From a virus (Duplodnaviria; Caudoviricetes): DNA of 64,000 bases. How positions within the stretch are numbered: the first letter of the stretch is position 1; every line of letters begins with the position of its first letter. Below, in pieces: positions 3,088 through 21,143 of this stretch. Under the pieces are notes generated by a model. It worked only from the letters and a program-made list of their open reading frames with translations. It was not told the origin of the DNA and ran no database searches. The stretch covers positions 1 to 64,000 of IMG/VR virus record IMGVR_UViG_642791618_000001, one strand, 5' to 3'. The translations under genes and the position numbers were made by a program.

Positions 3088-3091
3088 AACT

Positions 3092-4294: not shown

Positions 4295-5127
4295 CAGGAT
4301 CGCCTCCTTTCCAAGGCTTCGGTCTCTCGATCCAGATAAGCGTCAGCTTCCGGGAAATCCTTTGCCAGCAGGTGAATCAACGCCTCGATCCGGTTAGCTT
4401 GGATTTCGCGGTCTTCCTCAAAGAACATGCTGTTGATTCCGATAAGGCGCATGCGCGCGGGAATCCAAAACAGCGAATCTTTGAACCGAGCTCTCCAAAT
4501 GCCACCACCGCTCATTCCATAGGGCTCAGGGAGGTCTTGCCATTCGCCCGTGAACACGTCGAGCACCCGCTCCGGATATTCCATTCGCATATTCAATGGG
4601 CGTGATCCCGGCTTGCCCCAATCAAAGTCCTCCGGAACGTTTGTTTGGTAGAGGAACGAGTCGTAGAGGTGGATTATGCCGTGTTCGGTCTTGTGCGCGG
4701 CTTCTGGCATTCCAAAAGTCATCGTCAGGTCTTCCGCCAGGCCTTCTGGAAACAATTCGAAGTCATCCAACGTCAGCCAGGATTTATGCGCCAATTGCCG
4801 CAGACACCATTCGGACGGGCGGAGATAGCCCACGTCGAGATCATCATCGCTCACGCCGCTCATAAAATCCTTCTCCTCGGGTGCGGCACGCAGATTGGAA
4901 GGTTTTTCCTGCGCCACAATCTGCAGCCGCTCCACGTCATGTCGCTCGATCACATGCGCCGCCGTCACGATTAGAGGAGTGTCGTTCGCACGCACCAACA
5001 TTCCCGTGCCATGGTCATAAGGCGTCTGCTCATTATGAGCAGCGATCACGACGGTCCGATCGAACAAATACCGGTTAATGGCGGGCTTTGCCTCCTTCAT
5101 TATCGCGATTTTCGTCTGATCAGTCAC
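4294..5127 (-). CDS. Trypsin-like serine protease
   Basis: HGTG..., VTAAHV (His), DLDVGYL (Asp), GMSGGGIW (Ser). No signal peptide evident. Confidence 0.85.
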   Translation of the reverse strand: MTDQTKIAIMKEAKPAINRYLFDRTVVIAAHNEQTPYDHGTGMLVRANDTPLIVTAAHVIERHDVERLQIVAQEKPSNLRAAPEEKDFMSGVSDDDLDVGYLRPSEWCLRQLAHKSWLTLDDFELFPEGLAEDLTMTFGMPEAAHKTEHGIIHLYDSFLYQTNVPEDFDWGKPGSRPLNMRMEYPERVLDVFTGEWQDLPEPYGMSGGGIWRARFKDSLFWIPARMRLIGINSMFFEEDREIQANRIEALIHLLAKDFPEADAYLDRETEALERRRS

Positions 5128-5133
5128 AGCGTC

Positions 5134-6675
5134 CTAAGTGGCTTGAGGTTGGTCGCTCTGTTGCAAGGCGCCATAAAGCGTCTCGATGTCGGGAAAGAGC
5201 GGATCGCCGGGCAGGTCAAAGCCAGCACGAGTGAGACGGGAGAGGAGAGCGCGGTCGGGCGCAGTGTCGCCGCGATCTAGTGCTTGCTGAGCAGCAGCCA
5301 GTTCTGCCTCCGTCACGCGGCCTTCGATGAGGGCTTCAACTAGTTGCTTTGAAGCAGTCGTCAGGCGCACTGCAGTGCGTCGCAGGTCAATAGATTGCCG
5401 TCGACCGGAAGAAACTGATTGGAAGAAATATGGGCTAACGCTTGCCGGGTCAGGCACGGGGAAAACGCGAAGGTTCTCTAATGAGAAAAATGCATTTATC
5501 GCTCCGTAGACCTGTTGTTCGATCAACACTTGGCCGAGGTTCGACTCGCAAAAGGCGGCAACGAAGTCCGCTGTCGCCAAATCGCGAATCGGAACACGCG
5601 CGATGTCTTGGTTGATATTGCAACCTCGAAGTTCCTCGTCGATGGCTGCCGCGTCACCGACGGTTCCTTTGATTGAGATAACCAAATCTCCCACAGCCAA
5701 TCTGCTCCGTTTGATCGTTTCTTCGCTGTCCGTGTCCATTCGTGGAAGCGTGTCCCGATAGATGTCGCCGTCATGAAAATCTTGCCCCCGAATCCAAGGC
5801 ACACCCACAGCGCCAAAGCGCGCATCCCCTGGTGTCCCCCCATTAGTGATGCCGGGATAAAGCGCCCCTAAAAAAGCGAGAGCGGTGCCAGATTTGCGGA
5901 TTGCCGCCTCGGCGTGCACGAAGCGCGGGTTGTGATACCATGCGTCCACGCGCCCGTTGAGCCGCTCAGGCCGAACCCTATAACCGCGCGTCATCGGTGC
6001 TGGTGAATAGTGGCTGAAGTATTCGTTGAAGGACGCCGCGACTCTCCGCGCTAAAGCCTTCCCTGCCTCCCTCAAGCCCTCGGCCTGGCGCACTTTCTCT
6101 CCGACGTAGCGTTCACCGTCCGAACTAAGCTCCGGTAACAAGACGTCCTTTGCATCCGTCACGCCCAAATACTGAATGATGCTACCCAGCGAGCGTCGTT
6201 CGAGTTGCCTCCGCCCGTAAGGAGTGAACAAAAAAGCTGCAACGAATTCGGTGTCGTGACTGCCATTGGGATGAATGGCGATGATGTGCTGGGTGATGTT
6301 CGCACGCGGAATCCAGTCCGGGACGACGCAAATTTTTTCGCCGACGCTGGCTTTGACGATGAGCAGGTCGCCGGGGCGAACCTCCGACGCAATCAGGTCA
6401 TGATGCACCGCCTCATCAAGGTGAGCCATGCCATCGTAGATGACAGTCATCTCGCCGACATTGCCGACACGGAAAAGGGGAACACCCGAGGCAAGGTAAA
6501 GCTCGCTCGGCAGTGCGGACCCGAACGGGCCGGCGAAGAACTTGCCGGTCTCGCGAAGTTCAACGGAGCCGAACTCACGCAAGATGCGTTCGTCGCGAAT
6601 GTGCTCGGGCCGGTAATAGTCCGGGTCGAGCCGCTTGGGCGCGAGAAGCAGAGAAGGAACGCGGGTGGCCAGCAT
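5134..6675 (-). CDS. hsdS: Type I RM specificity subunit (HsdS-like, two TRDs)
   Basis: TRD motifs GPFGSAL..GVPLFRVGNV, PGDLLIVKASVG, NITQHII, and NGGTP..GVPWIRGQD, GDLVISIKGTVG, NINQDIA. The ATG at 6675 follows the hsdM stop; the track start at 6753 overlaps hsdM. Confidence 0.85.
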   Translation of the reverse strand: MLATRVPSLLLAPKRLDPDYYRPEHIRDERILREFGSVELRETGKFFAGPFGSALPSELYLASGVPLFRVGNVGEMTVIYDGMAHLDEAVHHDLIASEVRPGDLLIVKASVGEKICVVPDWIPRANITQHIIAIHPNGSHDTEFVAAFLFTPYGRRQLERRSLGSIIQYLGVTDAKDVLLPELSSDGERYVGEKVRQAEGLREAGKALARRVAASFNEYFSHYSPAPMTRGYRVRPERLNGRVDAWYHNPRFVHAEAAIRKSGTALAFLGALYPGITNGGTPGDARFGAVGVPWIRGQDFHDGDIYRDTLPRMDTDSEETIKRSRLAVGDLVISIKGTVGDAAAIDEELRGCNINQDIARVPIRDLATADFVAAFCESNLGQVLIEQQVYGAINAFFSLENLRVFPVPDPASVSPYFFQSVSSGRRQSIDLRRTAVRLTTASKQLVEALIEGRVTEAELAAAQQALDRGDTAPDRALLSRLTRAGFDLPGDPLFPDIETLYGALQQSDQPQAT

Positions 6676-6679
6676 CTTG

Positions 6680-8731
6680 TTACTCCCCGCGGATGTATGA
6701 ACCCGTGATCCCTGCGAGATCGTTAGGTACGCCTTTGCTGTAGTCTTCGACATTGTTCTTCACCTCGTAGCCGAGGTGGTCGGCCACGCCCATGAACACA
6801 TCCTTCTGCGGCTCATCGGCAAAGTGCTCGGGGTCATTGGGACGGGCGTGACGTTTCTGGAGGTAGAGGTAGCTGGTCTTGGCTCCGGTCCCGGAGAGTT
6901 TGAAGGTGTCTGACGGCAGAGACACGACCGCTTTGACGATCGCCTTGCCCCCGTGGAACTCACCGGTGACCGGGTCTTTCTTCCCCATGATGTATTCGCG
7001 AACGTAGCGCTCGCCGGAATTGCAGAGGACTCCATCGGGCAGGATGATGATGAGTCGTCCGCCGGGCTTGAGCAGTTCCAGGCAGCGATCGATGAAGAGG
7101 ACGGCGGGATCGATGCTGGTGGGGCTGATGGGAGTCCACCGGCCCTTTTTGTCGGGGCTCGCGCCCATCGCCTTGCCGGCGACCGTCGGTGTGTAGCGAT
7201 AGACCTCTTTTTTCCCAATCGGGAACCAACCCATGCCTGCCACAAAGGTATAGGCCGTCTTGTCGCCATCGGGTTCGAGGTCGGTGCGAAAGCGTTTGAG
7301 AATCTCGCCCATTTCGGTCTCGTAGCGCTCGCGAGCTTCGTGCTGGCCTTTCTTGAACTTGGGCGTGCCGAATGGCGGATTGGTGCAGATGAGATCGAAG
7401 GTGCCGGGTTCGAGCTGATCGGTGGTGAGCGAGTTCTGGACGTAGAAGATGCGGGCCTTGGGCGCGCCGAGCAAAGCCATGTTCACGCGGGCGAGCGTGA
7501 CCATGACCGGCGCCGAGTCGGCTCCACAGAAGCTGTAGGTGAGATGGTCCTCGAAGAGTTTCTTCCGCTTCACGTCGTCGAGGTTCAGCTCGGCAAGAGC
7601 GCGCTGGAGCCGGCCGACGGCGACGACTCCGAAGCCGTAGGTGCCGCACGCCGGATCGCAATAGCGGAAGACGGGCTTGTCGCCTTTGTAGGCGGCGAGC
7701 AGCTCGGGGGTCTCGGCGAGGATGTCGTGGAAGGCGATGTCGAGCATCGACTGCTTGACCGGCGCAGGTGTGAGGTAGATGCCAAGCCCGCCCTTGCTGT
7801 CGAAATTGCCGCGCAGGAAGACATCGAACGCCCGCCCGAGGGCATCGGCCGCCATGTCGGCGAAGGTGCCGTTGGCTTTGATTTGGACGCCACGGTTGTC
7901 GGTGACGGGGCCGAGGTTTTGGATTAGGTCGAGGAGCGTCTCGTAATTGCGCTGCTGCTCGAGCTGGAGGTGGACATTCTTGTCGAAGATGGGGTGGGAC
8001 TCGCCCTTGTCGTCGGTGACGACGTAGTCCGCGTGGCCCTTGAACTGATCGAACGCGGCCTGGATCTCGGCGACGGCGGCTTTGCCGTTTGCCCGGACGT
8101 AGTCGGCATCGAAGACATCGGCGAAGCGGCGCTTCCGGTTTTCGTGGGTGAACTCAATGTTCGGATGATGAAGCCGGAAGGATTCGAGGAAGAGGAACTT
8201 GGCGACTTCGAGAATGATGTCGTTCTTGCCGTTCACTCGGTCCTTCACGGTCTGATAGACTTGCTCGTGGAACGAGTTGAAGCCGTTCATCAGGCGCTCG
8301 TATTGGCGCATCGACCAGCGATAGGTCGGGTCGGCTTTGAGGCGTTTGTATTCGCCGATCTCCTGGACAGTGGGAAGCTGGTCGATCTCGTGCGGCGGAT
8401 GATTCGCGATGTCGAAAGTGCGCTCGTGCTCGCCATCGGTGGCGATGGCGAAGACCGGGTAGGCATCCTCGGCCGTCTCGGTCGGCGTCAGCGCCCAGGC
8501 GCGGGATTGCACATGCTCCGGTCGCGCCTTATCCCACTGCTCGGGCGTGAGCGCGAGGAGCAGGAGGCGTGGGGTGAGCACGCCTTTATGCCGACCCCAG
8601 ACGATGGCGGCGGATTCGTCGTCGCCGTCGGTGAGCGGCTGTTCGAGATCGAAGCCGCGTTCGGCGAGCTTGGTGGTGAGGGACGCGAGGGCGTCCTTGG
8701 CGGTGAGTGTTTCAGTTTCAGTTTCAGGCAT
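6680..8731 (-). CDS. hsdM: N6-adenine DNA methyltransferase, HsdM family
   Basis: GIYLTP, motif I variant DPACGTYGF, motif IV TNPPFG, ILPDGVL, VVSLP..F. Confidence 0.92.
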   Translation of the reverse strand: MPETETETLTAKDALASLTTKLAERGFDLEQPLTDGDDESAAIVWGRHKGVLTPRLLLLALTPEQWDKARPEHVQSRAWALTPTETAEDAYPVFAIATDGEHERTFDIANHPPHEIDQLPTVQEIGEYKRLKADPTYRWSMRQYERLMNGFNSFHEQVYQTVKDRVNGKNDIILEVAKFLFLESFRLHHPNIEFTHENRKRRFADVFDADYVRANGKAAVAEIQAAFDQFKGHADYVVTDDKGESHPIFDKNVHLQLEQQRNYETLLDLIQNLGPVTDNRGVQIKANGTFADMAADALGRAFDVFLRGNFDSKGGLGIYLTPAPVKQSMLDIAFHDILAETPELLAAYKGDKPVFRYCDPACGTYGFGVVAVGRLQRALAELNLDDVKRKKLFEDHLTYSFCGADSAPVMVTLARVNMALLGAPKARIFYVQNSLTTDQLEPGTFDLICTNPPFGTPKFKKGQHEARERYETEMGEILKRFRTDLEPDGDKTAYTFVAGMGWFPIGKKEVYRYTPTVAGKAMGASPDKKGRWTPISPTSIDPAVLFIDRCLELLKPGGRLIIILPDGVLCNSGERYVREYIMGKKDPVTGEFHGGKAIVKAVVSLPSDTFKLSGTGAKTSYLYLQKRHARPNDPEHFADEPQKDVFMGVADHLGYEVKNNVEDYSKGVPNDLAGITGSYIRGE

Positions 8732-9119
8732 GGTCGAGGAGTTGGACGAGACCGGGGCCGAACAGGCGAAGGGCGCGATGTTCGCGGGTCAGAGCTTTGA
8801 GTTGCGCAGTCGAAGTCTGGAATTGAGCGGGGAGGAGTTTGCGGATTTCGTCCGGGTGGAGTGGCCCTCCGCCGCGGGCGCGGAGAATGCCGATGACGGC
8901 TTCGAGCAGCGCCTCCTGCGGGGAACGCTGGCCGGCAGATACGGCGATGTCGTTGCCTTCACTCCTGAGGTGGATCCCGGGCGCGACGGTGAGAAAGAGC
9001 CGGAGTTGTTCGCGAGTCCAATTACTGCCCGATTCACGGACCATGGCGTGGACCTGCGAGAGCGCCACGGGTGCGGCGCGCAGAGTCGGGAGCAGTCGAT
9101 CGAAAATGGCGGGGGTCAT
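8724..9119 (-). CDS. Small (131 aa) possible winged-helix protein
   Basis: ATG at 9119 overlaps the upstream stop (ATGA) and its stop overlaps the hsdM start. C-terminal PLHPDEIRKLL..STAQLKAL pattern is HTH-like (inference). Confidence 0.6.
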   Translation of the reverse strand: MTPAIFDRLLPTLRAAPVALSQVHAMVRESGSNWTREQLRLFLTVAPGIHLRSEGNDIAVSAGQRSPQEALLEAVIGILRARGGGPLHPDEIRKLLPAQFQTSTAQLKALTREHRALRLFGPGLVQLLDHA

Positions 9120-10465
9120 GGGCGCCGGAGTGTGGCTTGTTGGATAGCACGCGCGCGATGCAAAACGGAGCGCCATTGGCCATGGAGATCGTTCCGCCGA
9201 CGGAGCACGCGCGCGAGCGTGCGTTCCCAGCGGACGAGGGTTTCGTGCGGAAAGCGCGGGAGGAAGACGTGGGCAAGATCGGCGGCGCGGATGAACTGCT
9301 GAGCGGTGCCCGAGGTGAACAGGCGGATTTGCCGGGCGACGGGTTCGGTGGCGAGGATGAGCGCCCATGCGCCAGGCGTGTCGTGGAAACGCAGCCGCGC
9401 CCAATGATCGACGGCGAATACCGGAGCTGGCGGGTCGTCGGCCAGCCAGGCGACACGGGGATCGGAGCCGAGCGTGGACATCAGCACATCGCCGGCGTGA
9501 AGCGGCCGGCCGTAAAGCCGGGAGCCGGCCGAGGTGGAACGAGGTTCATCCGGGATGTTCAGGTCGAACGAGCGGCGAACATCGCTGAGGCGCAGTGTAC
9601 GCACTGGCTGGCCGGTTTCACCGAGCCGCTCCGACGGGGTCGGAAAGACAAGGTCAGGCAAGCGCTGCCAGTCGGCGTCCCGGTGAAGAGTCTCCGCCTG
9701 GGCGTTAGCCGCGACATGCACCGGGACCAGCGAGTCATCAATCAACTCGCAGGAGAACCAATCGCACCACGTCGGCGCGCCATAGCGAGATGCGGTTTCG
9801 TTCCAGCTCGTCCGGGCAACTTCGTTCTCGACGGTAGTACCGACCTCCCCGTGGAGTCGCATCAGCTCGGTGTCGGCCTCGGCCAACGCTGCTAGGGCCA
9901 CCCAGGCTTCCTGCGCCAAAGGCGCGAGCACTGCTGGCGGCGGAGGCAACGCGAGATCGCGCAGCACAGAAAGCCTAAGCCGCGGCAAAACGGCAGCTCC
10001 CGACCGGCGTACCAGCATATCCGTGAACGCCGCAGTGTTCAGCCAAAGAAGCCACCAAAAGGCCACGCTGCGGTCGAGGCCACGTAGGATTATGCAGTTT
10101 GCATCCACGGGATGCCGATGATGCACGGGCATGACCCACGCGGCGCGGATCGGCGCGATCTTCGTAATGAGAACGTCTGCAGGGCGAATGCACCGCGAAT
10201 GCTCGACCTCGGGCACTTCGCCATGCTGGGAGTCCATGGACAGGAAAAATTCTCCGATGTGGGCGGATCGGTACAAAATGGAGGCCTTCCCGTCGGCATC
10301 CGGATCCGCCCTCAGCCCTTCCAGGAAGTGGCGGGACGCTCCGCGAACTTTATTACTAAAGAATAAAAGATACGGACTGCGACAGAAGAAGGCGGCGTCC
10401 AGAACGTCAAAACCCGCTATGGCACTAGGGGAGATGCGCGAAGTGGCTGACGTTTCTGATTCCAT
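9116..10465 (-). CDS. Second, divergent HsdS-like specificity subunit
   Basis: IRPADVLITKI, LPRLRLSVLRDLALPPPP, LHAGDVLMSTLG, GTAQQFIRAADLAHVFLP: degenerate TRD and conserved-region pattern. Confidence 0.7.
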   Translation of the reverse strand: MESETSATSRISPSAIAGFDVLDAAFFCRSPYLLFFSNKVRGASRHFLEGLRADPDADGKASILYRSAHIGEFFLSMDSQHGEVPEVEHSRCIRPADVLITKIAPIRAAWVMPVHHRHPVDANCIILRGLDRSVAFWWLLWLNTAAFTDMLVRRSGAAVLPRLRLSVLRDLALPPPPAVLAPLAQEAWVALAALAEADTELMRLHGEVGTTVENEVARTSWNETASRYGAPTWCDWFSCELIDDSLVPVHVAANAQAETLHRDADWQRLPDLVFPTPSERLGETGQPVRTLRLSDVRRSFDLNIPDEPRSTSAGSRLYGRPLHAGDVLMSTLGSDPRVAWLADDPPAPVFAVDHWARLRFHDTPGAWALILATEPVARQIRLFTSGTAQQFIRAADLAHVFLPRFPHETLVRWERTLARVLRRRNDLHGQWRSVLHRARAIQQATLRRP

Positions 10466-10767: not shown

Positions 10768-11028
10768 ATGAAATATCTACACGAAGAGTTCGATTGTGCG
10801 GGCGGCGAGACCGTCCGCGTGGACCTCAACAAGCAGGCCAACGTGCGCCTGCTCGACGACAACAACTACCGCCACTTCCGCTCCGGCGGCAGGTATCGAT
10901 GCGGAGGCGGCTTGGCGAAAACGACGCCGGTCTTGCTCACCGTTCCCAACGCGGGTCGCTGGCATGTCGTCGTGGACCTCGGCGGTTACGCCGGCAGCGT
11001 CCGCGCGTCCATCACCCTGCTCAACTGA
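10768..11028 (+). CDS. DUF1883-family small beta protein
   Basis: ANVRLLDDNNY..F..G.RY..GG.A..TPV.L.VP..G.WHVVVDLGGYAGSVRAS matches the DUF1883 pattern as recalled. Confidence 0.8.
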   Translation: MKYLHEEFDCAGGETVRVDLNKQANVRLLDDNNYRHFRSGGRYRCGGGLAKTTPVLLTVPNAGRWHVVVDLGGYAGSVRASITLLN

Positions 11029-11038
11029 GGAAACGACC

Positions 11039-12031
11039 ATGGCAAAAATTCATTTCCTCAACGTTGGACATGGCGATTGCACCGTCATCGAACACGGAAA
11101 CGGCAACCTGTCGGTCATCGACATCAACAACGGCACTGAACTCGACGACGATTCCGCCGATATCCTCCTCCACGCTTATGCCCGCAACACCACGGACTAC
11201 TTGGCGAAATGGATGGAGTGGAAAATTGGAGGGGTTCAAACGACCAGAATTCTCGCGGAGGCGGGATACGAAATCGAACTCACGAACCCGATTGAATTCC
11301 TCAAGAAGAACTATCCGGGACAACCGATTTTCCGATACATTCAAACCCACCCTGATTTCGACCACATGCGTGGCCTCGCGGCTCTTGAGAACTCTGGCAT
11401 CCCGGTGCTCAATTTTTGGGACGTGGCGCACACCCGGAAGTGGAAGGAGGGTGAGGACAAAGAGAGCGACAAAGCGGACTGGGAAGCCTACCAGCGCTAT
11501 CGTTCGGGGAAGAACAGCGCCACGGTGCTCAACCTGCTCCGCGGCTCCCATGGGAAATACTACAACCAGGACGACACTCCTGGTTCCGGCGGCAACGGTC
11601 TCCACATCCTCGCGCCCACCACAGAACTGGTCGCGGACTTCGACGAAGACGGGAAGCGGAACGAACTGAGCTACGTCCTCCAATATCGGGTCGCCAACCG
11701 CCGGATTATCTTCGGTGGCGACGCCGAGCAGGCGGGCTGGGAATCCATCCACAACCATTACGGCGCGAATTTGAAATGTGATGTGCTGAAGGCCAGCCAT
11801 CACGGTCGCGATACGGGATACTATCAACCGGCGGTGAAGGACATGAGCCCAACGGTGGTCATCGTCTCGGTCGGCAAGAAACCCGAGACCGATGCGAGCG
11901 ACAAATACGCCCAATATTGCCAGGAGGTCGCTTCCACCCGCTGGTATGGAGACATCACCCTGGAAATTGATGGTGAGGGAAACATGGCATGGACGACGAG
12001 CAAGCAGCGCAAGAGTAGGAGGGCGGCCTGA
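11039..12031 (+). CDS. Metallo-beta-lactamase-fold hydrolase, ComEC/Rec2 type (probable nuclease/phosphodiesterase)
   Basis: FLNVGHGDC, QTHPDFDHMRG, FGGDAE, LKASHHG. Confidence 0.88.
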   Translation: MAKIHFLNVGHGDCTVIEHGNGNLSVIDINNGTELDDDSADILLHAYARNTTDYLAKWMEWKIGGVQTTRILAEAGYEIELTNPIEFLKKNYPGQPIFRYIQTHPDFDHMRGLAALENSGIPVLNFWDVAHTRKWKEGEDKESDKADWEAYQRYRSGKNSATVLNLLRGSHGKYYNQDDTPGSGGNGLHILAPTTELVADFDEDGKRNELSYVLQYRVANRRIIFGGDAEQAGWESIHNHYGANLKCDVLKASHHGRDTGYYQPAVKDMSPTVVIVSVGKKPETDASDKYAQYCQEVASTRWYGDITLEIDGEGNMAWTTSKQRKSRRAA

Positions 12032-12777
12032 TGAAGACGAACTACTTCGACCACTATAGTTTCCGGGCTCGGCTCCAGCCGGCGTTTCTGGCGCTGGTGC
12101 CGCTCGCCGTGGGCGTGATGGCCTGGGCACAGCCCGGAGCAAAATGGGTGACGGCACTGTGGAGTTTGCTCGGCGCAGCGGGCTTTACCTTCTTCCTCGC
12201 GAATATCGCCCGAAACAGGGGGAAGAGCATCGAGCCGAAACTGTGGGAATCGTGGGGCGGCACACCGACGACGCAACTCCTGCGGCATCGAGGCGAAGGA
12301 AATCCCGTCCTTCGGGAACGCTGGCATCAGCAACTCGCGAAGCTGCTCGGCCGACCGATGCCGACCGCGGCAGAGGAGGTCGAGGACCCGGCTGCCGCAG
12401 ACGCCCTGTATGAAGCCGGAACGAAACTACTCATCGGGAAAACCTACGACGCAAAGGCGCATCCGTTCGTTTACCGGGACAACGTGAACTATGGCTTCTG
12501 CCGCAACCTACATGGCCTTCGCGGGCTCGGCATCGCTGCCTCGGTTGTCGGTGCTCTCGTGAGCGTCGGCGCGGGTGTCTGGTTTGTTGCGCAAGGGAAA
12601 GCACAACTGCTCCCGTGGGGCTCTGCCGGTATCTGCGTTGTCATGCTCCTCTGGTGGGTCTTCACCGTGACCGCAGCGTGGGTAAAAGTGCCGGCGATGA
12701 ACTACGCGCAGCATCTTTTCGCGGCGACGGAGAGCCTGACAAAAGCGAAGAAAGTGAAGCAACCACGCGACGATTAG
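12031..12777 (+). CDS. Multi-pass membrane protein (two N-terminal and two C-terminal hydrophobic helices)
   Basis: TGATG overlap with the MBL gene. Hydrophobic segments around residues 15-58 and 165-222. Confidence 0.8.
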   Translation: MKTNYFDHYSFRARLQPAFLALVPLAVGVMAWAQPGAKWVTALWSLLGAAGFTFFLANIARNRGKSIEPKLWESWGGTPTTQLLRHRGEGNPVLRERWHQQLAKLLGRPMPTAAEEVEDPAAADALYEAGTKLLIGKTYDAKAHPFVYRDNVNYGFCRNLHGLRGLGIAASVVGALVSVGAGVWFVAQGKAQLLPWGSAGICVVMLLWWVFTVTAAWVKVPAMNYAQHLFAATESLTKAKKVKQPRDD

Positions 12778-12908
12778 GCGTGCGTCTTCAAATAATTTTC
12801 GACGCGAAACTCAATCCCGCGAATGCTCTCCCACGTGTGCGCTTCGGGCCTGAGAACAGTTCGTAAGCGTCGTGGTAGAGCTTTGTGTCATCGATCTGCT
12901 GCACCGAG

Positions 12909-13928
12909 CTAACGGATTTGATAGTGCCCCACTTCTCCGGCCCCTACGAACTCGATTTGTGGCCCAAGGCTCGCCAAATCCCGTTTCGCGGTGGCGATTG
13001 AGACGGTGAACTGCTTCTCGTAATCTCGTCGTGTCAGCCGCTTGCCTTTGCGGAGCTGGGTGAGGAACCACTGCTTTCGTTCTTCCCCATCCGATTTCTC
13101 CGGCACAGCCACCTTGCCGTTCTTGCGCGTGACGCCGGCAGCAACCTCGACGGTGAGTTTGGGCGAGAGCTGATACCCGCGAGGCGTGGTGGCAATGATG
13201 TCGTTGCCGTCGCACGCCAGCCCGGCCTGTTCGGCGAGCAACTCAGATGCTCGCTTGCGGAACGTCTTCACCGCTTCAGCGATGGCCTTCTCCCCGCGCT
13301 CCACCTTGATTCGGTCAGCGAGGTCTTTGCCGGAGCAGGCTGGGAGGACGCATTTCGCCGTCCGGACGCAGAGCAGATTGATGATCTGCCAGATGCGACC
13401 GCTCGTGTTTTCGCAGAGTCGGACGCCGCACAATTCAACCGCCTCAGCGGTGACGATGAAATCGCCGCCGGTGAATGGCGTCAGAGCATGGCGTTTGGTC
13501 GTCGAAATCCGCGTGCGTTCGGTCGATGGAAGCCGGCGAGCGATGGCGTCGCCGATGGCTGTTTCGAGATTGTCGAAGGGCTTCTTCACGAAGTCGCTGG
13601 CACCGAGCTTGAAGACGCGCGTGGCGAGGTCGGGGCTGTCGTGACCATGCGCGGTGACGACGATAACGGGCGTGTGCCGATGCAGGACTGAGCCGCGAAT
13701 CTGTGACAGCAAGTTCGTGCCGGTCGGGATGAGCGGGGTCTTGCCGAAGCGCGTCGGGAGTTCGAGATCGAGCAGGATGTAGTCGTAACCTTGCTCCTTG
13801 AGCCGCAGGAGCGCGTCGTCCTGGCAGCCGACGGAATCGAACGTGTGACCCATTGATTCGACGCGGTCTTCAAGCGCCTCACGGACGCCTGGATTGTCGT
13901 CGATGATGAGGGCGTGCAGTTTCACCAT
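12909..13928 (-). CDS. Response regulator: REC domain plus winged helix plus C-terminal DeoR-like HTH
   Basis: LIIDDN, ILLDLELP (phospho-Asp), VVTAHG, FVKKP; GYQL wing; LTRRDYEKQFTVSIATAKRDL. Confidence 0.88.
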   Translation of the reverse strand: MVKLHALIIDDNPGVREALEDRVESMGHTFDSVGCQDDALLRLKEQGYDYILLDLELPTRFGKTPLIPTGTNLLSQIRGSVLHRHTPVIVVTAHGHDSPDLATRVFKLGASDFVKKPFDNLETAIGDAIARRLPSTERTRISTTKRHALTPFTGGDFIVTAEAVELCGVRLCENTSGRIWQIINLLCVRTAKCVLPACSGKDLADRIKVERGEKAIAEAVKTFRKRASELLAEQAGLACDGNDIIATTPRGYQLSPKLTVEVAAGVTRKNGKVAVPEKSDGEERKQWFLTQLRKGKRLTRRDYEKQFTVSIATAKRDLASLGPQIEFVGAGEVGHYQIR

Positions 13929-15073
13929 AGCGTTTCCTCCCGGCCTTCAATGGGCAGCAGCACAGTTACCCGCGTTCCTTCGTTCTCCACGCTGTCGATG
14001 TTTATCGATCCTCCGTGGGCGGCGATGTTCCGCCGGGCGATGGGCAGGCCAAAGCCAGTGCCGCTAAGCTGCTTCGAAGTCCGCCCCGGCACGAAGCGGC
14101 GGACCTCTTCCAGTTCGAGCGCGGAAAAGCCCATCCCATCGTCGGCAATCTCGACCTCGATCCACTCGCCTCGCAAGGCACGGGCAACGAGACGTATTTC
14201 GCCAGCACGGAAGCGGTTCGCGTCAATGGCGTGAGCTTCAAACGCGTTCTTCACCAGATTGCGAAAGGCGAGGACGATCTGGACTCGAGAGACGCCGACG
14301 GTGAGGTCCAAAGGCACCTCGGCGGAAAACTGCACGGACGAAGCATCGCACCCCCGAGCGGCAAATTCCTCACGCACCATGTTCACGGCCTCATTCACCA
14401 AGTCGGCAATGCGTTCCGTTCGCCGTTCCCGCGACGGTGCTTGCGTGTAGAGGCGCATATCGTCGAGGAGACGTTCGAGGTAGCCGACGTGGGTAGTCAT
14501 CCGACCCGCGAGCCTTTGAGTCAGCGCGGCATCGGTGCCACCACTGCGGACGAGCTGCTCGATGTTGGATTTCATCGCCGTGGCCACGCTCCTCATCTCG
14601 TGGACCGACGCGCCGACGAGTCCTTCATACATCCGCTGCGCCACATCGCGGGCGAGCCGCGCAATCTTTATACCCTGCGATTTTTCCAGCCGAGCCAGAT
14701 CGTCTTCCACTTTATCCAGCCCGCGGCGGCGTTTCGCTTCAGTGTTCTGCCCACGTCGACGGCGCTCGACCGCACGTTCGGCGGAACCTTTGACGAAAGC
14801 ATTTTCATCGGCGGTCAGTTGTGCGGCGAGTGGGGCGAAATCCGAATCGGGCAGGACGTGCAGGGCGTCGGCGACTTCCTTCCGAACCTCCCACTTCGTA
14901 TCGCCTGCGAGCAGCCGGAGCAGCGCGGAAGCCGACGACGGCGCGGTTTGGCCTGGACTGAGCAGCAGTGCTGCGTCGCGCACGAACTGCGCGCGGCGGG
15001 TCCACGCGAAGGCGTTTCGATCCGCTGTCAACGCGGCCACTGCATCATCCAAACTGGGCACGGCCTCGGACAT
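13922..15073 (-). CDS. Cytoplasmic histidine kinase with N-terminal HEAT-like repeats
   Basis: H-box SVHEMRS, N-box RNLVKNAFEA, G1 IADDGMGF, G2 GTGFGLPIAR. EVRKEVADAL and FVKGSAERAV are HEAT-like. No TM segment. ATG 15073 overlaps the ATPase stop. Confidence 0.85.
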   Translation of the reverse strand: MSEAVPSLDDAVAALTADRNAFAWTRRAQFVRDAALLLSPGQTAPSSASALLRLLAGDTKWEVRKEVADALHVLPDSDFAPLAAQLTADENAFVKGSAERAVERRRRGQNTEAKRRRGLDKVEDDLARLEKSQGIKIARLARDVAQRMYEGLVGASVHEMRSVATAMKSNIEQLVRSGGTDAALTQRLAGRMTTHVGYLERLLDDMRLYTQAPSRERRTERIADLVNEAVNMVREEFAARGCDASSVQFSAEVPLDLTVGVSRVQIVLAFRNLVKNAFEAHAIDANRFRAGEIRLVARALRGEWIEVEIADDGMGFSALELEEVRRFVPGRTSKQLSGTGFGLPIARRNIAAHGGSINIDSVENEGTRVTVLLPIEGREETLW

Positions 15074-16950
15074 CAGAATTGGTATCGCTTGCCGCGTTTG
15101 CGGAATGCTTCCTCCCCGCCTTCGAGCAGTGTGACGATGCTGTCCTTGCACTCATCCACGGTGCCTTCGCGCGTCTTTCGTCCGTGCTCGCCATCGGACT
15201 CCATCACGACGACGCGCTCGGCCTCTCCAAGCACGGGGATGTTTGGATTGTGGGTCACGAAGATGAGCTGCCGGGTCGCTTTCACCGCTTGGATATTGGC
15301 CACAACAGCCTCGAAAATGAAGCTGTTATCGAGGTTGTCCTCCGGCTGATCGATGAGCAGCGGGTTTTCGCTTTCAAGTAGCAGGATTGGCAGAATCGTC
15401 GTGCATTTCTGGCCGGTCGAAAGCTGCGTCGAGGGTTTGTAGCCTTCGCCGTCGCGCAATTCGATGGTTGGCTCATCGAGTAACTCCACGGTTTCCAGCT
15501 CAGCGAGCGTTGTCGGACGATTGAACGTGACCATCATCTTGGCAGCCTGGTCTGCGTTGAGTTCGCCACGATCCATCAGCAAGCGCGAATCGCCCGCACG
15601 CACGAGAGCCGCCAATTGCGTTGGAGGCAGCAGCCGGACGAGCTTTTGCGCGATCATACCCCGCTGCACACCGGCGCCTTTGAGCGTGTCTTCGATGAGA
15701 CGCTGGTAGGTATCCGGGTTGCCATCCTGCGCCACGGTCACGCGGATATTCGGTGCGAGAGCACGGTTCAGCCGGTCGGCGATGCCCTTGCGAAGATTGA
15801 AGCGCCGATCGCGTAATTCGGACAGTTGCGTGATCAGCTTCTGATGTGACTCAGAGTGTTTCGCGAGTTGCCGGGCAATTTCGTCCGCTTCGCGTTTGCG
15901 CTCACCGAGTTCATTGCGGCGGCGTTCAAGAGTGGCGCGCTCTGCCGACTGTGCTTGATGCTGCTTGTGTTTCTCGATCAACTCGCGGAACGCGAGTTCC
16001 TGCTGCTCGTGTGCGTTTTGCAGCTCCGTCTTGAGGGCGCTCAGATTCGCGAGAAAATCCTCAATTGTGTGGCGCGCCTTGTTGAGGTGGCCGTCGGTCG
16101 TGGTCGCGCTCGCGAGCATTTGCGTGTGCAGCCGGGTCAGGATCGCGGCATTAGGGCCGGTGAGCAGGTCTTTAGGAAGGTGGGTTCCGGTGATCGCCTT
16201 GGCATGTCCGATGAGTGACTGGATCTGCTCTACGTATTCGCAAAGTGAAGTGCTCGCTGTGCGCACAGCCCGAACTTCCCGGTCGCGGTTCCCCTTGAGC
16301 CGGTGGGCTTCGTTGATCACGGCTGCGTCGTTGCCTTGCCCACCCGCGAATGCGGCGAGCTTCGCCTCAATCACGGGCAACTGCTTGGCTTCTTCCTCAG
16401 CGGTCGCGCGCTTCGTGGTCAGCGTTTCAACCTCGCGGGCCAGCGCTGTGATGTTCTGGCAGACCACGCTGATATGCGCATTCAGACCGACAATGTCGTC
16501 CGCCGTGAAACTGTCGATGAGGTCGAGTTGATACCGACTCTGATCGGCGATGGATTCGACTTCGTTTTGGCTGAACACATCGGCGCGGAAGAGCGACTTC
16601 ACTGCGATGCCTGTCGGCTGACGTTTCAGGTCCAGAACAATGGGGTCCTCGTCGACTGCCCGGCTGATGATGTAGTGGAGCCCGTCCGCGGTTTCGATCT
16701 CGAGTTCAATCCGGCCGCCTTCGAGGTTGCCATCGACGAGCGCCTCAATGCGTTTCCGAGCCGAAGCGGCCACTTCGCGACGCGGCAGCGCGTCCATCGC
16801 GTAGCGGATGAGTTCGAGGATGGTCGTCTTGCCGGTGCCGCGCGCGCCGATGATGCAATTGAGGCCGGTGGCGAGGTCGATGCGCACGCCATCGAGGAAG
16901 CCGCCAATGATCGAGAGGCTTTTGAGTTGGTGTCTGCGTTTCGTTTTCAT
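15073..16950 (-). CDS. SMC/RecN-like coiled-coil ABC ATPase (TrlF/AAA_23-like, no PHP domain)
   Basis: Walker A GARGTGKTT, long coiled coil, signature LSTGQK, Walker B LLIDQPEDNLD, H-loop FVTHN. Confidence 0.88.
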   Translation of the reverse strand: MKTKRRHQLKSLSIIGGFLDGVRIDLATGLNCIIGARGTGKTTILELIRYAMDALPRREVAASARKRIEALVDGNLEGGRIELEIETADGLHYIISRAVDEDPIVLDLKRQPTGIAVKSLFRADVFSQNEVESIADQSRYQLDLIDSFTADDIVGLNAHISVVCQNITALAREVETLTTKRATAEEEAKQLPVIEAKLAAFAGGQGNDAAVINEAHRLKGNRDREVRAVRTASTSLCEYVEQIQSLIGHAKAITGTHLPKDLLTGPNAAILTRLHTQMLASATTTDGHLNKARHTIEDFLANLSALKTELQNAHEQQELAFRELIEKHKQHQAQSAERATLERRRNELGERKREADEIARQLAKHSESHQKLITQLSELRDRRFNLRKGIADRLNRALAPNIRVTVAQDGNPDTYQRLIEDTLKGAGVQRGMIAQKLVRLLPPTQLAALVRAGDSRLLMDRGELNADQAAKMMVTFNRPTTLAELETVELLDEPTIELRDGEGYKPSTQLSTGQKCTTILPILLLESENPLLIDQPEDNLDNSFIFEAVVANIQAVKATRQLIFVTHNPNIPVLGEAERVVVMESDGEHGRKTREGTVDECKDSIVTLLEGGEEAFRKRGKRYQF

Positions 16951-16974
16951 CGAGACGACCAATCTTGCGAAAAG

Positions 16975-17140
16975 CCGGTATCACCAAGCGAAACCCGGCT
17001 CGGTATCACAGTCCATATGGCGCGCGTGATACCGGTATCACGGATCGGCTGATACCGGCATCGTCAGCCGGGCGGCGCCATCCGGCTGACCGTACGGGAT
17101 TGGTAATTCGGAACCGCACCGGGAGGACACGATACCGGCA
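16975..17140. promoter_or_regulatory. Array of five GATACC(GG) operator-like sites in the divergent intergenic region
   Basis: Perfect 18-bp palindrome CGTGATACCGGTATCACG at 17025-17042. Related sites at 16975-16984, 17001-17009, 17050-17062 and 17131-17140. Confidence 0.7.
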
Positions 17141-17206
17141 CTCATGGGATTTCTCGGCCCGTCACGCAAACCGCGGGGCACCGAAAATCAAAACCAAATC
17201 GCAACC

Positions 17207-18162
17207 ATGAGTATTCTCGCATCCACCATCCATCGCGGCCCGCTTGTTCGGGCGCAGAAGACAGTCATTTACGGCCCCGAGGGCATCGGCAAGACCACCC
17301 TTGCGGCGCAGTTCCCATCGCCTGTGTTTCTCGACACCGAGGGCGGTACCCATCATCTCGACGTGGCGCGTTTCCCCGCGCCAAAGACTTGGGATGACGT
17401 GACGAAAACTATCGCCGCACTCGCGTCCGAGCCGCACGAGTTCAGGACTCTTGTCGTCGATACGGCGGACTGGCTTGAAAAGCTCCTCATCGAGGACGTC
17501 TGCCGCCGCGCGAACAAAACGAGCATCGAGGAATTCGGCTACGGCAAAGGCTACGTGGTGCTCGCGGAGGAGGTAACAAAGTTCCTCGCATCGCTCAATG
17601 CGCTGCTCGCTCGCGGAATGCACGTCCTGCTGCTCGCGCACTGCCGAATTGCGAAGTTCGAGCAGCCCGACGCGGCGGGCGCGTATGATCGCTACGAGCT
17701 GAAGCTCACCAAGCAGGTCGCGCCGCTGGTGAAGGAGTGGTGCGACATGCTGCTCTTCGCGAACTACTTCACGAAGATCGCGGAGAATGACAGTGGCAGA
17801 AACGCGGTGTCGGCGGACGCGAGCGCAAGCTCTATACGACCCACACGGCCGCGTGGGACGCCAAGAACCGGCACGGCTTCGAGGAAAATCTGCCGTTCGA
17901 GTTCGCCGCCGTTGCGTCGGCTTTCGGTGCCAGCACAGAAATCAAACCAGTGGCTCCGGTCGCGAATCCCGTCGAGAGGCTCGCGGAGTTGGTCTCCGGA
18001 AAAGAAGACGTGGTGAACGCATTCCTTGTCGCTCGGCAGCAAATCAAGACCGGGCAGACGTGGCGTGATGTCGCACCCGACTACGCCCTGCGCGTCATCA
18101 GCAAACCGGATGATTTCCTCCGCGCCGTCGAAGCGCAGCTCGCGAACGGAGGTGCGAAATGA
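17207..18162 (+). CDS. Phage ATP-binding recombination protein (AAA_24/Sak4-like), one frameshift near 17800
   Basis: IYGPEGIGKTT, FLDTEGG, LVVDTADWLE. The conserved tail GGRERKLYTTHTAAWDAKNR continues in another frame to the stop at 18162. Confidence 0.85.
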
Positions 18163-19177
18163 CCCTTCGCCCCTCGAATCTCCCGAAGCTCGCCATCTGC
18201 GCGTGTTTTGAGCCGAATCCGGATGCGGGCTCCGCAGCAGCACGCGGTACCATGCTGGATGGTGTGTTCCGGCGCCGCGTCCACGGCGACAAGTCCGACG
18301 ACACGGCCGTCGCGAAGGACGAACTCGACGCGGTGGATTGGGCGATCAACCAGATCGCCGCGATTGCCGGCACGACGGAAATCGTCACCGCAGAAGCCCG
18401 CTGCAAAATCGAGTGCCTTGGCCTCACCGGGACGGCGGATGCCTGGCTGCCGGAGCTGGGCATGAGCGCGGATCTCAAGACCGGTCAGCTCCGAAACTAC
18501 CGGGAGCAGATGGCCGCCTACGCACTTGGTTTCATGGAAGCAACCTTTTGCAGCGAATGGACGGCGCATTTGCTGTTCTGCGATCAGCGGCAGTTCGTCA
18601 CGTATCGTTTCAACTATGAGGAAGCGAAAGCGGTTGTGAGTGAAGTGATCGCCCAATTCCACGACCCCGCGAAACAGCCGGTGCCGTGTGACTACTGCTC
18701 GTGGTGCGCGAAAGCTGAGACGTGTCCAGCCCGGCTTGAACTTGCGGCGGCGGGGCGCTGACGCCCGCCGGGCCGGCGTTCAACTTCGAGGCCGTCCTCG
18801 CGGACGACGAGCAGCTTGGTCAATTCCTCTCCGCCTGTGCGGTGCTCGATGATTTCCGCGAACGCGCGGAGGAAATCGCGAAGAAGCGCCTCATTGGCGG
18901 CGACAAGATTCCGGGCTGGAAGCTGAGCAGCCGGAAGGCGCCGGAGTTCGTCTATCACGATGCGGTCGGACGCTACATCGACCGCTTTGGTTTCGGCGCG
19001 GTACTCGGCGCTTACGGCAATCTCAGCGGCGCGAAATTCCGCGAGCTGTGGGCCGCGAAGATGCCGGCTGACACGCCCTTTCCCGAGGAACTCATCCAAC
19101 GCGGAGCCGGCTCGGTCAGCTTGCGGCGCGTCTCCACCAAACCCACGACCACCAAACCCACACTCACTAACGCCTAA
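18159..19177 (+). CDS. PD-(D/E)XK exonuclease (DUF2800/Cas4-like), frameshift near 18750
   Basis: LRPSNL..C, GTADAW, DLKTG, QMAAYA, C.YCSWC...CP. Second half lies in the 18842-19177 frame. Confidence 0.8.
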
Positions 19178-19182
19178 ACGCC

Positions 19183-19620
19183 ATGCCTTCCTACCGCTCA
19201 TCCGAACCCACCGCCCGCCCAGATTTCGTCGAGCCGGGCGAATACACCGTCGAAGTCGTCAACGCCGAGGAAACCGTTTCCCAGAAAGGAAGCGACATGA
19301 TCGAGCTGAAGCTCCGCGTGCATCCCAGCGGCGCGACCATGTTCGACCATCTCGTGTTCATGGAGTCGGCGTTTTGGAAGATCGACTCCTTCCGCGCCGC
19401 GACCGGCGAATCGGTCACGCCGGACGAAGAAGTCGATATCCACGCCGATGACCTCATCGGTCGCACCGGCCGCGCGCGGCTCACCATCGAGGAATTCAAC
19501 GGTCGCAAGCGCAACAAGATCGCCGCCTGGCTGCCGCCGAAACCGGCAGCATCCGCGCCGGCGGCAGTCGCAGCAACTGCAGGCACCAAGCCCAAGGACG
19601 ATGACAACATCCCCTTCTAA
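19183..19620 (+). CDS. DUF669-family phage ssDNA-binding protein
   Basis: PGEY.V.V..AEET.S.KG..MIELKL; acidic SSB-like tail DDDNIPF. Confidence 0.82.
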   Translation: MPSYRSSEPTARPDFVEPGEYTVEVVNAEETVSQKGSDMIELKLRVHPSGATMFDHLVFMESAFWKIDSFRAATGESVTPDEEVDIHADDLIGRTGRARLTIEEFNGRKRNKIAAWLPPKPAASAPAAVAATAGTKPKDDDNIPF

Positions 19621-21143
19621 GGTCGCATTGCGCGGCTATCAGGTCGCGGCACACGAAGCGATCCAGCGCGGCTTCGCGGAGCATCAGCGTCAGTTGCTGG
19701 TGCTCCCGACCGGCGGCGGCAAGACCGTCGTGCTCGCACATCTTGCGGCTACGCATCAACCGCGGCGGACGCTCGTGCTCGCGCACCGCGAGGAACTCAT
19801 CACGCAGGCCGTGGACAAAATCCGCGCCGTCACCGGACTGATTCCCGAGGTTGAAATGGCCGACTTCCGCGCCAGCCTGAACGCTCCGGTCGTCGTGGCC
19901 AGTGTGCAAACGCTGGTACGCAGCTCGCGGCGCGAACGCTGGCCCCACGATCATTTCGGCCTTCTGGTCGTGGACGAAGCCCATCACTCGCTCGCGGACA
20001 GCTACCTCAACACGCTCCGCTACTTCGATGAAAACGCTTTCGTGCTCGGCGTCACCGCGACGCCTGATCGTGGCGACAAGAAGAATTTGGGTCGCTACTA
20101 CCAGAACATCCCGTACGAGGTGACACTGCTCGATCTCGTGCAGCAGAATTGGCTCTCTCCCATCCGGGTGAAGACGGTGCCGCTGGAAATCGACCTGGAC
20201 GACGTGGGCACGACCGCCGGCGACTACAACGCCCAGGATCTCGGCCATGCCATCGAGCCCTACCTGGAGCGCGTCGCCGACGTGCTCGCGGAGCACGTGC
20301 AACGGAAGATTCTCGTCTTCCTCCCGCTGATCTCGCTCAGTCGCGGCTTCGCCGAGCTCTGCCGCCAACGTGGACTGCGTGCGGAGCACGTCGATGGCAC
20401 GAGCGACGACCGGGGCGACATCCTCGCACGCTTTCGCCGCGGCGAAACGCGTGTGCTCACTAACGCCATGTTGCTCACCGAGGGCTATGACGAGCCGAGC
20501 ATTGATTGCGTTGTCTGCCTGCGGCCGACAAAAATCCGCTCGCTCTACAGCCAGATCGTCGGGCGAGGCACTCGGCTCTATCCGGGCAAGGATCACCTGC
20601 TGTTGCTCGACTTTTTGTGGATGAGCGAGGAGCACGTGCTGATGAAGCCGGCGAACCTCATCGCCGCCGACGCCGAGGAAGCAAACGCCATCACCGAGGC
20701 GCTCGGCTTTGGCGGCGATCTCGAGGAAGCGAAGGGCAAAGCCGACGCCGACCCGTGCGGCCACGCTGCGCCAGCGCCTCCGCCAGAATGCAAAGCGCAA
20801 CGCGCGGACATTCGACGCGCTGGAGTTCGCCCTGTCGCTGGGCGACGTGGACCTGGCCGACTTTGTGCCGACGATGCCCTGGCATGGCGACCCGGCCACG
20901 AGCCGACAGCGCGAGATTTTGGGCAAGTTCGGCGTTGATCCCGGCACGCTTACCTGTAAAGGCCAGGCAGCGGCGCTGCTGGACAAGCTCTTCCTCCGCC
21001 GCGACCTCGGCCTCGCCAGCGCCCGCCAGGTGCTCTGGTTGCGGAAGCTCGGCCATCCGAAACCGGAACTCGCCACCTTTGACGAAGCGAAGCAATTCCT
21101 CGATGCGAAGTGGAGCAAACCCGCCGTGCCGGCCCAGCCATGA
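19601..21143 (+). CDS. SF2 DEAD/DEAH helicase, frameshift near 20755
   Basis: LRGYQ, PTGGGKT, VVDEAHH, GVTATP, LTEGYD, QIVGRGTR. C-terminus continues in the 20709-21143 frame. Confidence 0.88.

Follow-up and report, generated by a model that had tools for sequence, protein, structure and literature searches.

An SMC-like ATPase joined to a two-component system in an apparently mobile cassette at the early-operon junction of a Verrucomicrobial prophage

Background

Which protein acts at the junction between the divergent operons of a prophage when no cI-type repressor gene is found there? This question is raised by a stretch of 64,000 nucleotides of the IMG/VR virus record IMGVR_UViG_642791618_000001 (Duplodnaviria; Caudoviricetes), hereafter called the window. 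At the junction with the phage replication operon, the window contains three coupled genes that encode an ABC (ATP-binding cassette) ATPase resembling SMC and Rad50, a soluble histidine kinase and a response regulator; we refer to this group of genes as the triad. A first-pass annotation, made from the nucleotide sequence and a list of its reading frames, had proposed that the three products form a phosphorelay and that the triad occupies the place of a lambdoid cI repressor.

The known role of SMC/Rad50-like ATPases is to sense a signal and activate nucleases; that of two-component systems is to detect small molecules or the state of the envelope. We rate the triad as a combination of these known kinds: it can be described as a phosphorelay in which an SMC-like input replaces the sensor domain, or as an ABC-ATPase sensor in which a phosphorelay replaces the nuclease. 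Literature searches on ABC or SMC-like ATPases, two-component systems and defence found no published description of it. The cassette is apparently a widespread, undescribed mobile signalling unit, and it probably links a DNA or infection signal to gene control. In the following sections, we describe the genes, the three proteins and the control region beside them, and then weigh the explanations of what the cassette does.

Results and discussion

Gene organization and prophage setting

The triad consists of three co-oriented open reading frames (ORFs) on the minus strand of the window, at 12909-16962 (Table 1), in the order ATPase, kinase and regulator. The stop codon of the ATPase gene and the start codon of the kinase gene have one base in common (TGATG), and the kinase and regulator genes overlap by 7 nt (ATGGTGA). 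The triad is divergent from a plus-strand operon of Sak4-like, exonuclease-like, helicase and primase genes. The description of three coupled genes transcribed away from the replication operon, as given in the first-pass annotation, therefore holds in all its parts.

Farther along the same window are genes for the small and large terminase subunits, the portal and the major head protein; their presence beyond the replication operon indicates that the setting is a real prophage. The window corresponds to C60:193024-257023 of a 7.85-Mb assembly, in which the triad is present in a single copy, and the closest relative found is a Chthoniobacterales metagenome-assembled genome (locus L001). A megablast search of 12800-21000 against phage records gave no match.

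The junction itself contains neither a cI nor a Cro gene, as had been claimed: no gene with an HTH_3 or S24 domain lies between the triad and the replication operon, and the gap of 193 bp contains no plausible ORF, and hence no Cro-like small gene. The prophage also contains no gene for an S24 peptidase.

The three proteins

The ATPase matches the Pfam families AAA_21, AAA_23 and SMC_N. It contains a Walker A motif (GARGTGKT), a signature motif (LSTGQK), a Walker B motif (LLIDQPED) and an H-loop (THNPN), and all four are invariant in 46 homologues. In the AlphaFold (AF2) model, which has a pLDDT (the confidence score of the model) of 88, the protein is composed of an ABC head, an antiparallel coiled coil (138-398) and a helical insert (413-487), so that the motifs are split by a long antiparallel coiled coil, which is the arrangement of SMC/Rad50-like ABC ATPases. 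The best Foldseek matches of the model are Rad50, Smc heads, JetC, MukB and LmuB (E 1e-12 to 1e-8) and RecN. No CxxC motif was seen by eye at the apex of the coiled coil (~200-268), for which no dedicated analysis was made.

Among the NCBIfam models, TrlF_fam_ATP (NF045780) matches the ATPase with an E-value of 9.7e-98 along profile positions 286-944 of 944, with a score of 329 bits, which is below the curated cut-off of 350; the other matches are Spaf_1101 (NF045781; 1.5e-47) and Ppl (2.2e-39). In PADLOC, a database of defence models, the protein matches Ppl (2.6e-27), part of LmuB (1.6e-12) and, weakly, AriA. Positions 1-285 of the TrlF profile, which we take to be the PHP phosphoesterase domain, are not matched. 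Consistent with this, Pfam finds no PHP domain in the ATPase, none of its best 120 homologues has a PHP annotation, and in the model the first strand of the head is preceded by only 8 residues. Judged by its sequence, the ATPase is a PHP-less member of the TrlF/Ppl clade. It was not accepted as a Ppl or TrlF protein proper, since the ABC region matches but the PHP domain expected in the same protein is not there. The family comprises at least 760 clusters at 90% identity, whose members are named only 'AAA family ATPase' or the like.

The kinase contains, from its N-terminus, HEAT-like repeats (residues 1-130), a DHp domain with an H-box (VHEMRS) and a HATPase_c domain. The last of these is a clear Pfam match (1.8e-18); the HEAT_2 match (1.5e-4) is under the Pfam cut-off, yet this domain is annotated for many of the homologues. 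Residues H158, N272/N276, D311-G313-G315, F327 and G338-G342 are invariant in 26 homologues, and these correspond to the H-box histidine and the N, G1, F and G2 boxes, that is, to the DHp histidine and the catalytic HATPase_c boxes of a two-component kinase. No hydrophobic or membrane segment was seen in its sequence. The protein is thus, as first described, a soluble kinase with HEAT-like repeats and without a sensor domain. None of the PADLOC kinase models matches it at E-values up to 0.01.

In the regulator, the receiver domain (REC; Pfam Response_reg, 2.3e-18) has residues D11, D54, T92 and K116, all of which are invariant in 57 sequences; they correspond to the acidic pocket, the phospho-acceptor aspartate and the conserved threonine and lysine of an intact receiver. 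Two further residues, T313 and R316 in the last recognition helix of the protein, are invariant in the same 57 sequences. The AlphaFold model (pLDDT 89.5) places an OmpR-type winged helix at 148-262 and a second winged helix at 280-339, with recognition helices at 213-235 and 311-320, and its best Foldseek matches are full-length regulators of the OmpR/PhoB type (VanR, MtrA, RpaA and KdpE). The Pfam domain Trans_reg_C was not detected in the regulator. When the second winged helix was searched alone, phmmer against PDB found nothing, and the only leads from ESM Atlas, Trans_reg_C and HTH_24, had low scores. The earlier assignment of two DNA-binding domains to the regulator can thus be kept at the level of the predicted fold. 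The PADLOC matches of the regulator (PDC-M60B/C and SduA) are confined to the receiver domain. In a variant of the cassette found in IMG/VR (L101, L107-L109, L111, L112, L122 and L125), the regulator is only ~255 aa in length and contains no detectable match to the C-terminal region of the regulator in the window.

The control region between the divergent operons

The region between the ATPase and Sak4-like genes contains an array of related palindromic sites (Table 1). GATACCGG occurs seven times in the window, where 0.97 occurrences are expected, and five of the seven are inside 16951-17143. No other cluster of at least three GATACCGG sites within 200 bp is present in the 7.85-Mb genome, and the 14-bp palindrome of the array is likewise unique in it. 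The array includes TGATACCGG-type sites, one of which (17025-17042) is a perfect 18-bp palindrome, as well as a CCATATGG palindrome. One operator site stops 3 nt short of the ATG of the Sak4-like gene, which is the presumed target of the regulator.

Related sites are found in other Verrucomicrobial loci, where a composite palindrome consisting of CCGGTRTCA, ~6 nt, CCATATGG, ~4 nt and TGAYACCGG is located ~55-95 nt 5' of the ATPase start. The regulators of these loci are just ~40% identical to that of the window, and the divergent modules differ (Sak4 versus PDDEXK/PIF1 type). The same loci contain a further site of the CCGGTGTCAAA form closer to the divergent gene, which reads TTGACA on the opposite strand and is a possible -35 box. 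In all of them, the site clusters are upstream of the ATPase gene only and never after the regulator gene. Since the regulator is the sole DNA-binding protein common to these loci within the fetched flanks, the array is assigned to it, and we infer that the regulator binds these sites.

A second type of candidate operator is seen independently in the unrelated viral contig L101, which contains five copies of the palindrome GTCATATGAC where 0.27 are expected: two sites are 100-125 nt upstream of the ATPase ATG, and the other three are 5' of the next plus-strand operon, which contains helicase and primase genes. When all loci were scanned for a repeated 8-mer that is both 5' of the ATPase gene and clustered elsewhere, L101/L082 was the only clear case. 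In the Planctomycete upstream regions there are only a weak enrichment of TGTCA/TGACA-type words and a probable -35 box.

A scan of 12700-17300 with the sigma-70 consensus found no promoter; consequently, the positions of the sites do not distinguish repression from activation of the early operon. No LexA-type box of the form TGTTC-N4-GAACA is present in the window.

Two additional elements were noted in these regions. At 17063-17090 there is an imperfect palindrome with arms of 14 nt (GTCAGCCGGGCGGC / GCCATCCGGCTGAC) and no spacer; it is unrelated to the GATACCGG sites and could be a second operator or a hairpin. A subclade of Planctomycete loci (L033, L046, L053, L056, L065, L069, L073, L074 and L076) has a shared leader, GGTGGAACCCAGCCTGCCGGCTCTGTCATGCCGGACAT..., ~60-180 nt 5' of the ATPase gene, for which a promoter, an operator, an RNA element and the end of the element are the candidates; ARAGORN found no tRNA in it.

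Distribution and mobility

A profile search with the kinase gave matches at no fewer than 236 places in species-representative genomes; 80 of these loci were fetched and examined, and all of them contain the triad. Note that the gene context of the loci was determined by in-house ORF calling, which picked some antisense ORFs in high-GC DNA. The fetched loci belong mainly to Planctomycetota and Verrucomicrobiota, with a few from Lentisphaerae and Gemmatimonadota, one from Caulobacterales and one from a candidate-phylum bin. In all 80, the order ATPase-kinase-regulator is retained wherever the contig reaches; the proteins are ~625, ~385 and 340-390 aa in length, and the gene overlaps are small. 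Pairwise identities among the three proteins correlate with each other (r 0.84-0.89). The flanks, on the other hand, vary: there is no conserved fourth gene in the 80 loci, and the largest cluster of flanking proteins is a large serine recombinase, present in 15 of them.

The spread of the cassette is patchy. Of 401 genomes taken from across the phylum, 8 encode the ATPase, and it is absent from the nine other genomes of the same order in this sample; some genomes contain the triad in several copies. The tree is divided into a Verrucomicrobial clade, which includes the window, and a Planctomycete clade, within which rows from other phyla are nested and near-identical copies occur in different orders. 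Some copies are decayed: the ATPase gene is split by a ~3.5-kb insertion in L036 and the kinase gene by a ~2-kb insertion in L052, the ATPase gene is frameshifted in L055 and L080, and the regulator gene has internal stops in L011 and L038. Taken together, the kept gene order, the correlated identities, the variable flanks, the patchy spread and the broken copies indicate an accessory cassette that is self-contained and moves horizontally.

The cassette is also present in viral sequences. When the ATPase profile was run against IMG/VR, a full-length ATPase was identified in ~37 viral contigs, and the kinase gene follows in nearly all of those that extend far enough. A Sak4 or helicase gene is within 10 kb in 20 of these contigs, and a large serine recombinase gene in 13.

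Phage genes and recombinases beside the cassette

The divergent arrangement with a Sak4/exonuclease/helicase/primase operon is found in the window, L001, L004, L013 and the viral contig L088. In seven other Verrucomicrobial loci, the triad is divergent from an operon encoding an unknown protein, a PDDEXK protein and PIF1; some of these operons are headed by a gene for a 74-aa protein that by eye resembles a small helix-turn-helix (HTH) protein and in which Pfam finds nothing. In the contigs with the ~255-aa regulator, an integrase gene is directly 5' of the ATPase gene on the opposite strand and Sak4 and helicase genes follow the triad; in L125, the regulator gene is separated from Sak4 by a small HTH_17 gene.

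Serine recombinase genes are within 10 kb of the triad in 18 of 88 loci; in eight of these, the recombinase frame lies 9-23 nt past the end of the regulator match and is convergent with it. The sole large serine recombinase gene of the genome that contains the window is 13 kb to the left of the window and is also convergent with the regulator gene.

The first-pass annotation had called for a search for the triad in which adjacency to phage replication genes is scored. The outcome is divided: in 11 genome loci of Verrucomicrobiota and several viral contigs, the triad is divergent from phage genes for replication or recombination, but among the 51 genome loci whose flanks reach 8 kb or more, only 22 have a gene for phage-type replication or for a large serine recombinase, a count that rests on a limited set of probes.

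Comparison with known systems

Ppl, TrlF and Spaf_1101 contain a homologous ABC ATPase with a coiled-coil insert; in Ppl and TrlF it is fused to a nuclease, whereas the ATPase of the triad is instead paired with a kinase and a regulator. The ATPases of Lamassu (LmuB), Wadjet (JetC) and PARIS (AriA) share with it the ABC head and the long coiled coil. However, these activate the nucleases LmuA, JetD and AriB, respectively, whereas the conserved partners in the triad form a phosphorelay and include no nuclease. The triad was rejected as a Lamassu system, since the LmuB match is only partial and no conserved LmuA effector is present in the 80 loci. Lamassu is reported to respond to DNA ends, and AriA of PARIS to Ocr (PMC12663957, PMC11464382).

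Detocs (DtcA kinase, DtcB receiver and DtcC receiver-effector) and Ambrosia resemble the triad in that a phosphorelay is used in an anti-phage context; unlike the triad, neither has an SMC-like ATPase. In Detocs, the effector is an enzyme domain on the receiver. The triad was not classified as Detocs: its kinase has no PADLOC kinase match (the Detocs content of the PADLOC version used was not checked), and its sole receiver protein has a DNA-binding output. Ambrosia consists of genes resembling restriction-modification (RM) genes and a two-component module that is proposed to control them; its receiver protein carries a winged HTH domain and is proposed to switch on the defence genes (bioRxiv 10.1101/2025.09.30.679545).

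The lambdoid immunity region (cI/operators/cro, rexAB) likewise contains a leftward regulator operon that is divergent from an early rightward operon, with several similar palindromes in the gap and with cargo of the defence type following the regulator. In contrast to that region, the triad junction has no HTH_3/S24 protein and no Cro-like small gene, and its DNA-binding protein is a response regulator, which would depend on phosphorylation. The three proteins contain no HTH_3 and S24 domains or equivalent dimerisation domain, and the triad was therefore rejected as a cI-type repressor.

Finally, the regulator has in common with the OmpR/PhoB family a REC domain followed, in the predicted fold, by a winged helix, and a structural likeness along its full length. 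It differs from that family in the undetected Trans_reg_C domain, in the extra C-terminal winged helix of ~60 aa and in its palindromic sites, as the sites of OmpR/PhoB regulators are usually direct repeats.

Proposed mechanism

In the reading that we favour, and to which we give about an even chance, the triad is a two-component cassette that is mobile and gated by its ATPase, and the regulator acts at the promoter of the cassette as well as at the adjacent one. The ATPase would read a signal linked to DNA; by analogy with Lamassu and PARIS, the candidates are phage proteins, the ends of DNA, and DNA that is foreign or undergoing replication. Through protein contact, the ATPase would pass this signal on to the cytoplasmic kinase, which lacks a sensor domain and would therefore receive it by way of its N-terminal HEAT repeats. 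The kinase would set the phosphorylation state of the OmpR-type regulator, a step for which the motifs, the adjacency and overlap of the two genes and the co-evolution of their products are observed and the chemistry is inferred, and the regulator would bind the TGAYACCGG / CCATATGG array beside the cassette promoter. Because the array spans the 193-bp region held in common with the Sak4/helicase/primase operon, the cassette would both autoregulate and gate the phage early genes. The cassette heads the prophage arm with the defence cargo, and in other elements it is located among defence systems or beside a serine integrase. The phosphorelay of the first-pass annotation is a plausible reading of the architecture, which is as it was described there. 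The operator array that occupies the divergent region has no second occurrence in the genome.

Several points weigh against this mechanism. Another, unrecognised repressor could use the array, and the ATPase could be a regulated effector rather than a sensor. No operator common to most Planctomycete loci was found 5' of the ATPase gene. At many loci, co-oriented defence genes, and not phage early genes, are upstream of the triad. In three loci (L044, L049 and L055), a gene for a canonical repressor with HTH_3 and S24 domains is located directly upstream of the ATPase gene on the same strand. The last observation implies that the triad is no general replacement of cI: the position assigned to it in the first-pass annotation is correct for the early-operon junction of the window but does not apply generally.

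Defence genes and alternative explanations

The main rival explanation, which we consider rather unlikely, is that the three genes act by themselves in defence against phages or plasmids and travel as prophage cargo within the immunity region, in the manner of rexAB after cI. In such a system, the ATPase would detect the invader, the regulator would merely autoregulate or amplify, protection would come from the ATPase itself (by DNA clamping) or from an unseen target, and the proximity to the early operon would be incidental. This explanation is favoured by the neighbours, 15 of 20 of which proved to be known defence proteins when tested against PADLOC: type III RM, BREX (PglZ, BrxL, BrxC, PglX and PglW), SspB/C, HmaA, LmuB, OLD-like and PDC-S06 proteins. 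In Planctomycete loci, the type III RM, PDC-S06, BREX PglZ/BrxL, LmuB and OLD-like ATPase genes are upstream of the triad and co-oriented with it, and the PDC-S06 gene overlaps the ATPase start by 4 nt. The kinship of the ATPase to the defence protein Ppl, the patchy, horizontal spread with multiple and decayed copies, the integrases that often adjoin the triad and the co-oriented S24 repressors at the three loci point in the same direction. However, the three proteins contain no nuclease, NADase, pore or other effector domain, there is no conserved fourth gene, and DNA binding, as predicted from the models, is the only function of an output domain. Moreover, the triad matches no PADLOC system model, the operators of the window extend to the start of the Sak4-like gene, and the early operon of L101 carries the same operator as its triad.

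A stronger form of the mechanism that we favour appears unlikely. In this form, a family of temperate phages and integrative elements from Planctomycetota and Verrucomicrobiota would have the cassette as its master switch, with the regulator replacing cI. The ATPase would sense the state of the DNA (breaks, replicating or foreign DNA) and set the balance of kinase and phosphatase activity, and the phosphorylated regulator would sit at operators between the lysogenic and early operons.

Quite improbable is the explanation that the triad serves to sense infection and to regulate the defence cargo beside it, similar to BrxR or to the two-component part of Ambrosia, in which activation would raise transcription from the cassette promoter and read through into co-oriented defence genes downstream. 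The Ambrosia module is a precedent for this arrangement (bioRxiv 10.1101/2025.09.30.679545), and a large defence system follows the regulator gene on the same strand in all six Verrucomicrobial loci tested: BREX (BrxF/BrxC/PglX) in L001, an HKD-SNF2 helicase gene and a Mokosh MkoA-like gene in L004, Hma (HmaA) in L013, type III RM in L002, Ssp (SspB/C) in L024 and PglW in L027. L001 and the window are collinear from 24952 down to 13009 and differ past that point, so that the DNA after the regulator can be regarded as a cargo slot; in the window, a co-oriented HsdS gene lies beyond the triad on this side. On the other hand, the defence genes of the Planctomycete loci are upstream of the triad, a convergent MBL cassette (10768-12777) separates the triad of the window from the co-oriented operon, and there is no operator cluster between the regulator and the downstream genes.

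The weakest explanation, an ordinary host two-component system that came to lie beside an unrelated ATPase gene by chance in a prophage, agrees with the generic REC and HATPase_c matches but is very improbable in view of the strict conservation of three overlapping genes, the co-evolution of their products, the single copy inside a prophage, the absence from the nine genomes of the same order and the occurrence in ~37 viral contigs.

Other features of the window and related loci

The coordinates of the features are collected in Table 1. The sole HTH_3 protein of the window, an XRE protein of 72 aa, is encoded directly upstream of the small terminase gene and is divergent from a minus-strand gene whose product is ParB-like by eye only. 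This XRE protein is a candidate second regulator of the prophage.

The convergent MBL cassette is headed by a gene for an 86-aa protein (10768-11028, plus strand). Its MBL-fold protein (10796-12031, plus strand) matches PADLOC PDC-M48B (4.4e-28), and the N-terminal part of that protein weakly matches LmuA (9.9e-8). In L005 and L081, the regulator gene is directly followed by a co-oriented match to the 86-aa protein, and this place may be a recurrent slot for an accessory effector. To the left of the window, at C60:187625-193040, there are five further minus-strand ORFs in a row (~200-560 aa). They share their strand with the genes at 1-10465 of the window and with the triad; if all of these form one operon, its span is ~16 kb.

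In Planctomycete and viral loci, small proteins similar to sigma-70/ECF factors are encoded near the triad or the integrase. They were recognized by a PHROG sigma-factor match, and Pfam finds Sigma70_r2 in 3 nearest neighbours.

Table 1. Coordinates of the features described in the text, given for the window unless a locus is named
Feature	Coordinates	Strand	Remarks
SMC/Rad50-like ABC ATPase, 625 aa	15073-16950	-	likely start M5
Soluble HEAT-repeat histidine kinase, 383 aa	13922-15073	-	likely start M27
Response regulator, 339 aa	12909-13928	-	REC, OmpR-type winged helix and second winged helix
Divergent control region with candidate operator array	16951-17143		five GATACCGG sites
TGATACCGG-type sites	16975-16984, 17000-17009, 17025-17042, 17050-17062, 17131-17140		
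CCATATGG palindrome	17013-17020		
Sak4-like gene, first of the divergent replication/recombination operon	17144-18016	+	Pfam AAA_24 2.5e-53, PHROG 124
XRE/HTH_3 protein, 72 aa	53232-53450	+	sole HTH_3 in the window
Sigma-like ORF, locus L069	14118-14651		
Sigma-like ORF, locus L078	12249-12743		
Sigma-like ORF, locus L038	6724-7461		
Sigma-like ORF, locus L084	12569-13111		
Sigma-like ORF, locus L081	15609-16229		

Conclusion

The cassette is placed where phages hold their lysogeny control and where islands hold their defence genes. The module is common enough for study, and the small size of the cassette and its operator array make it suitable for bench work. If the triad is a stand-alone defence system, it would be one without a recognisable killing domain. 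If the favoured mechanism is true, a mobile operon that hard-wires an SMC-like ATPase to a two-component system would represent a new route from a DNA or infection event to a transcriptional decision; in particular, if the cassette gates the early genes, it would offer a testable, RecA-independent route of induction in two poorly studied phyla. In its strong form, it would be the first prophage switch that is run by a phosphorelay, gated by an SMC-like ATPase and independent of RecA-driven repressor cleavage.

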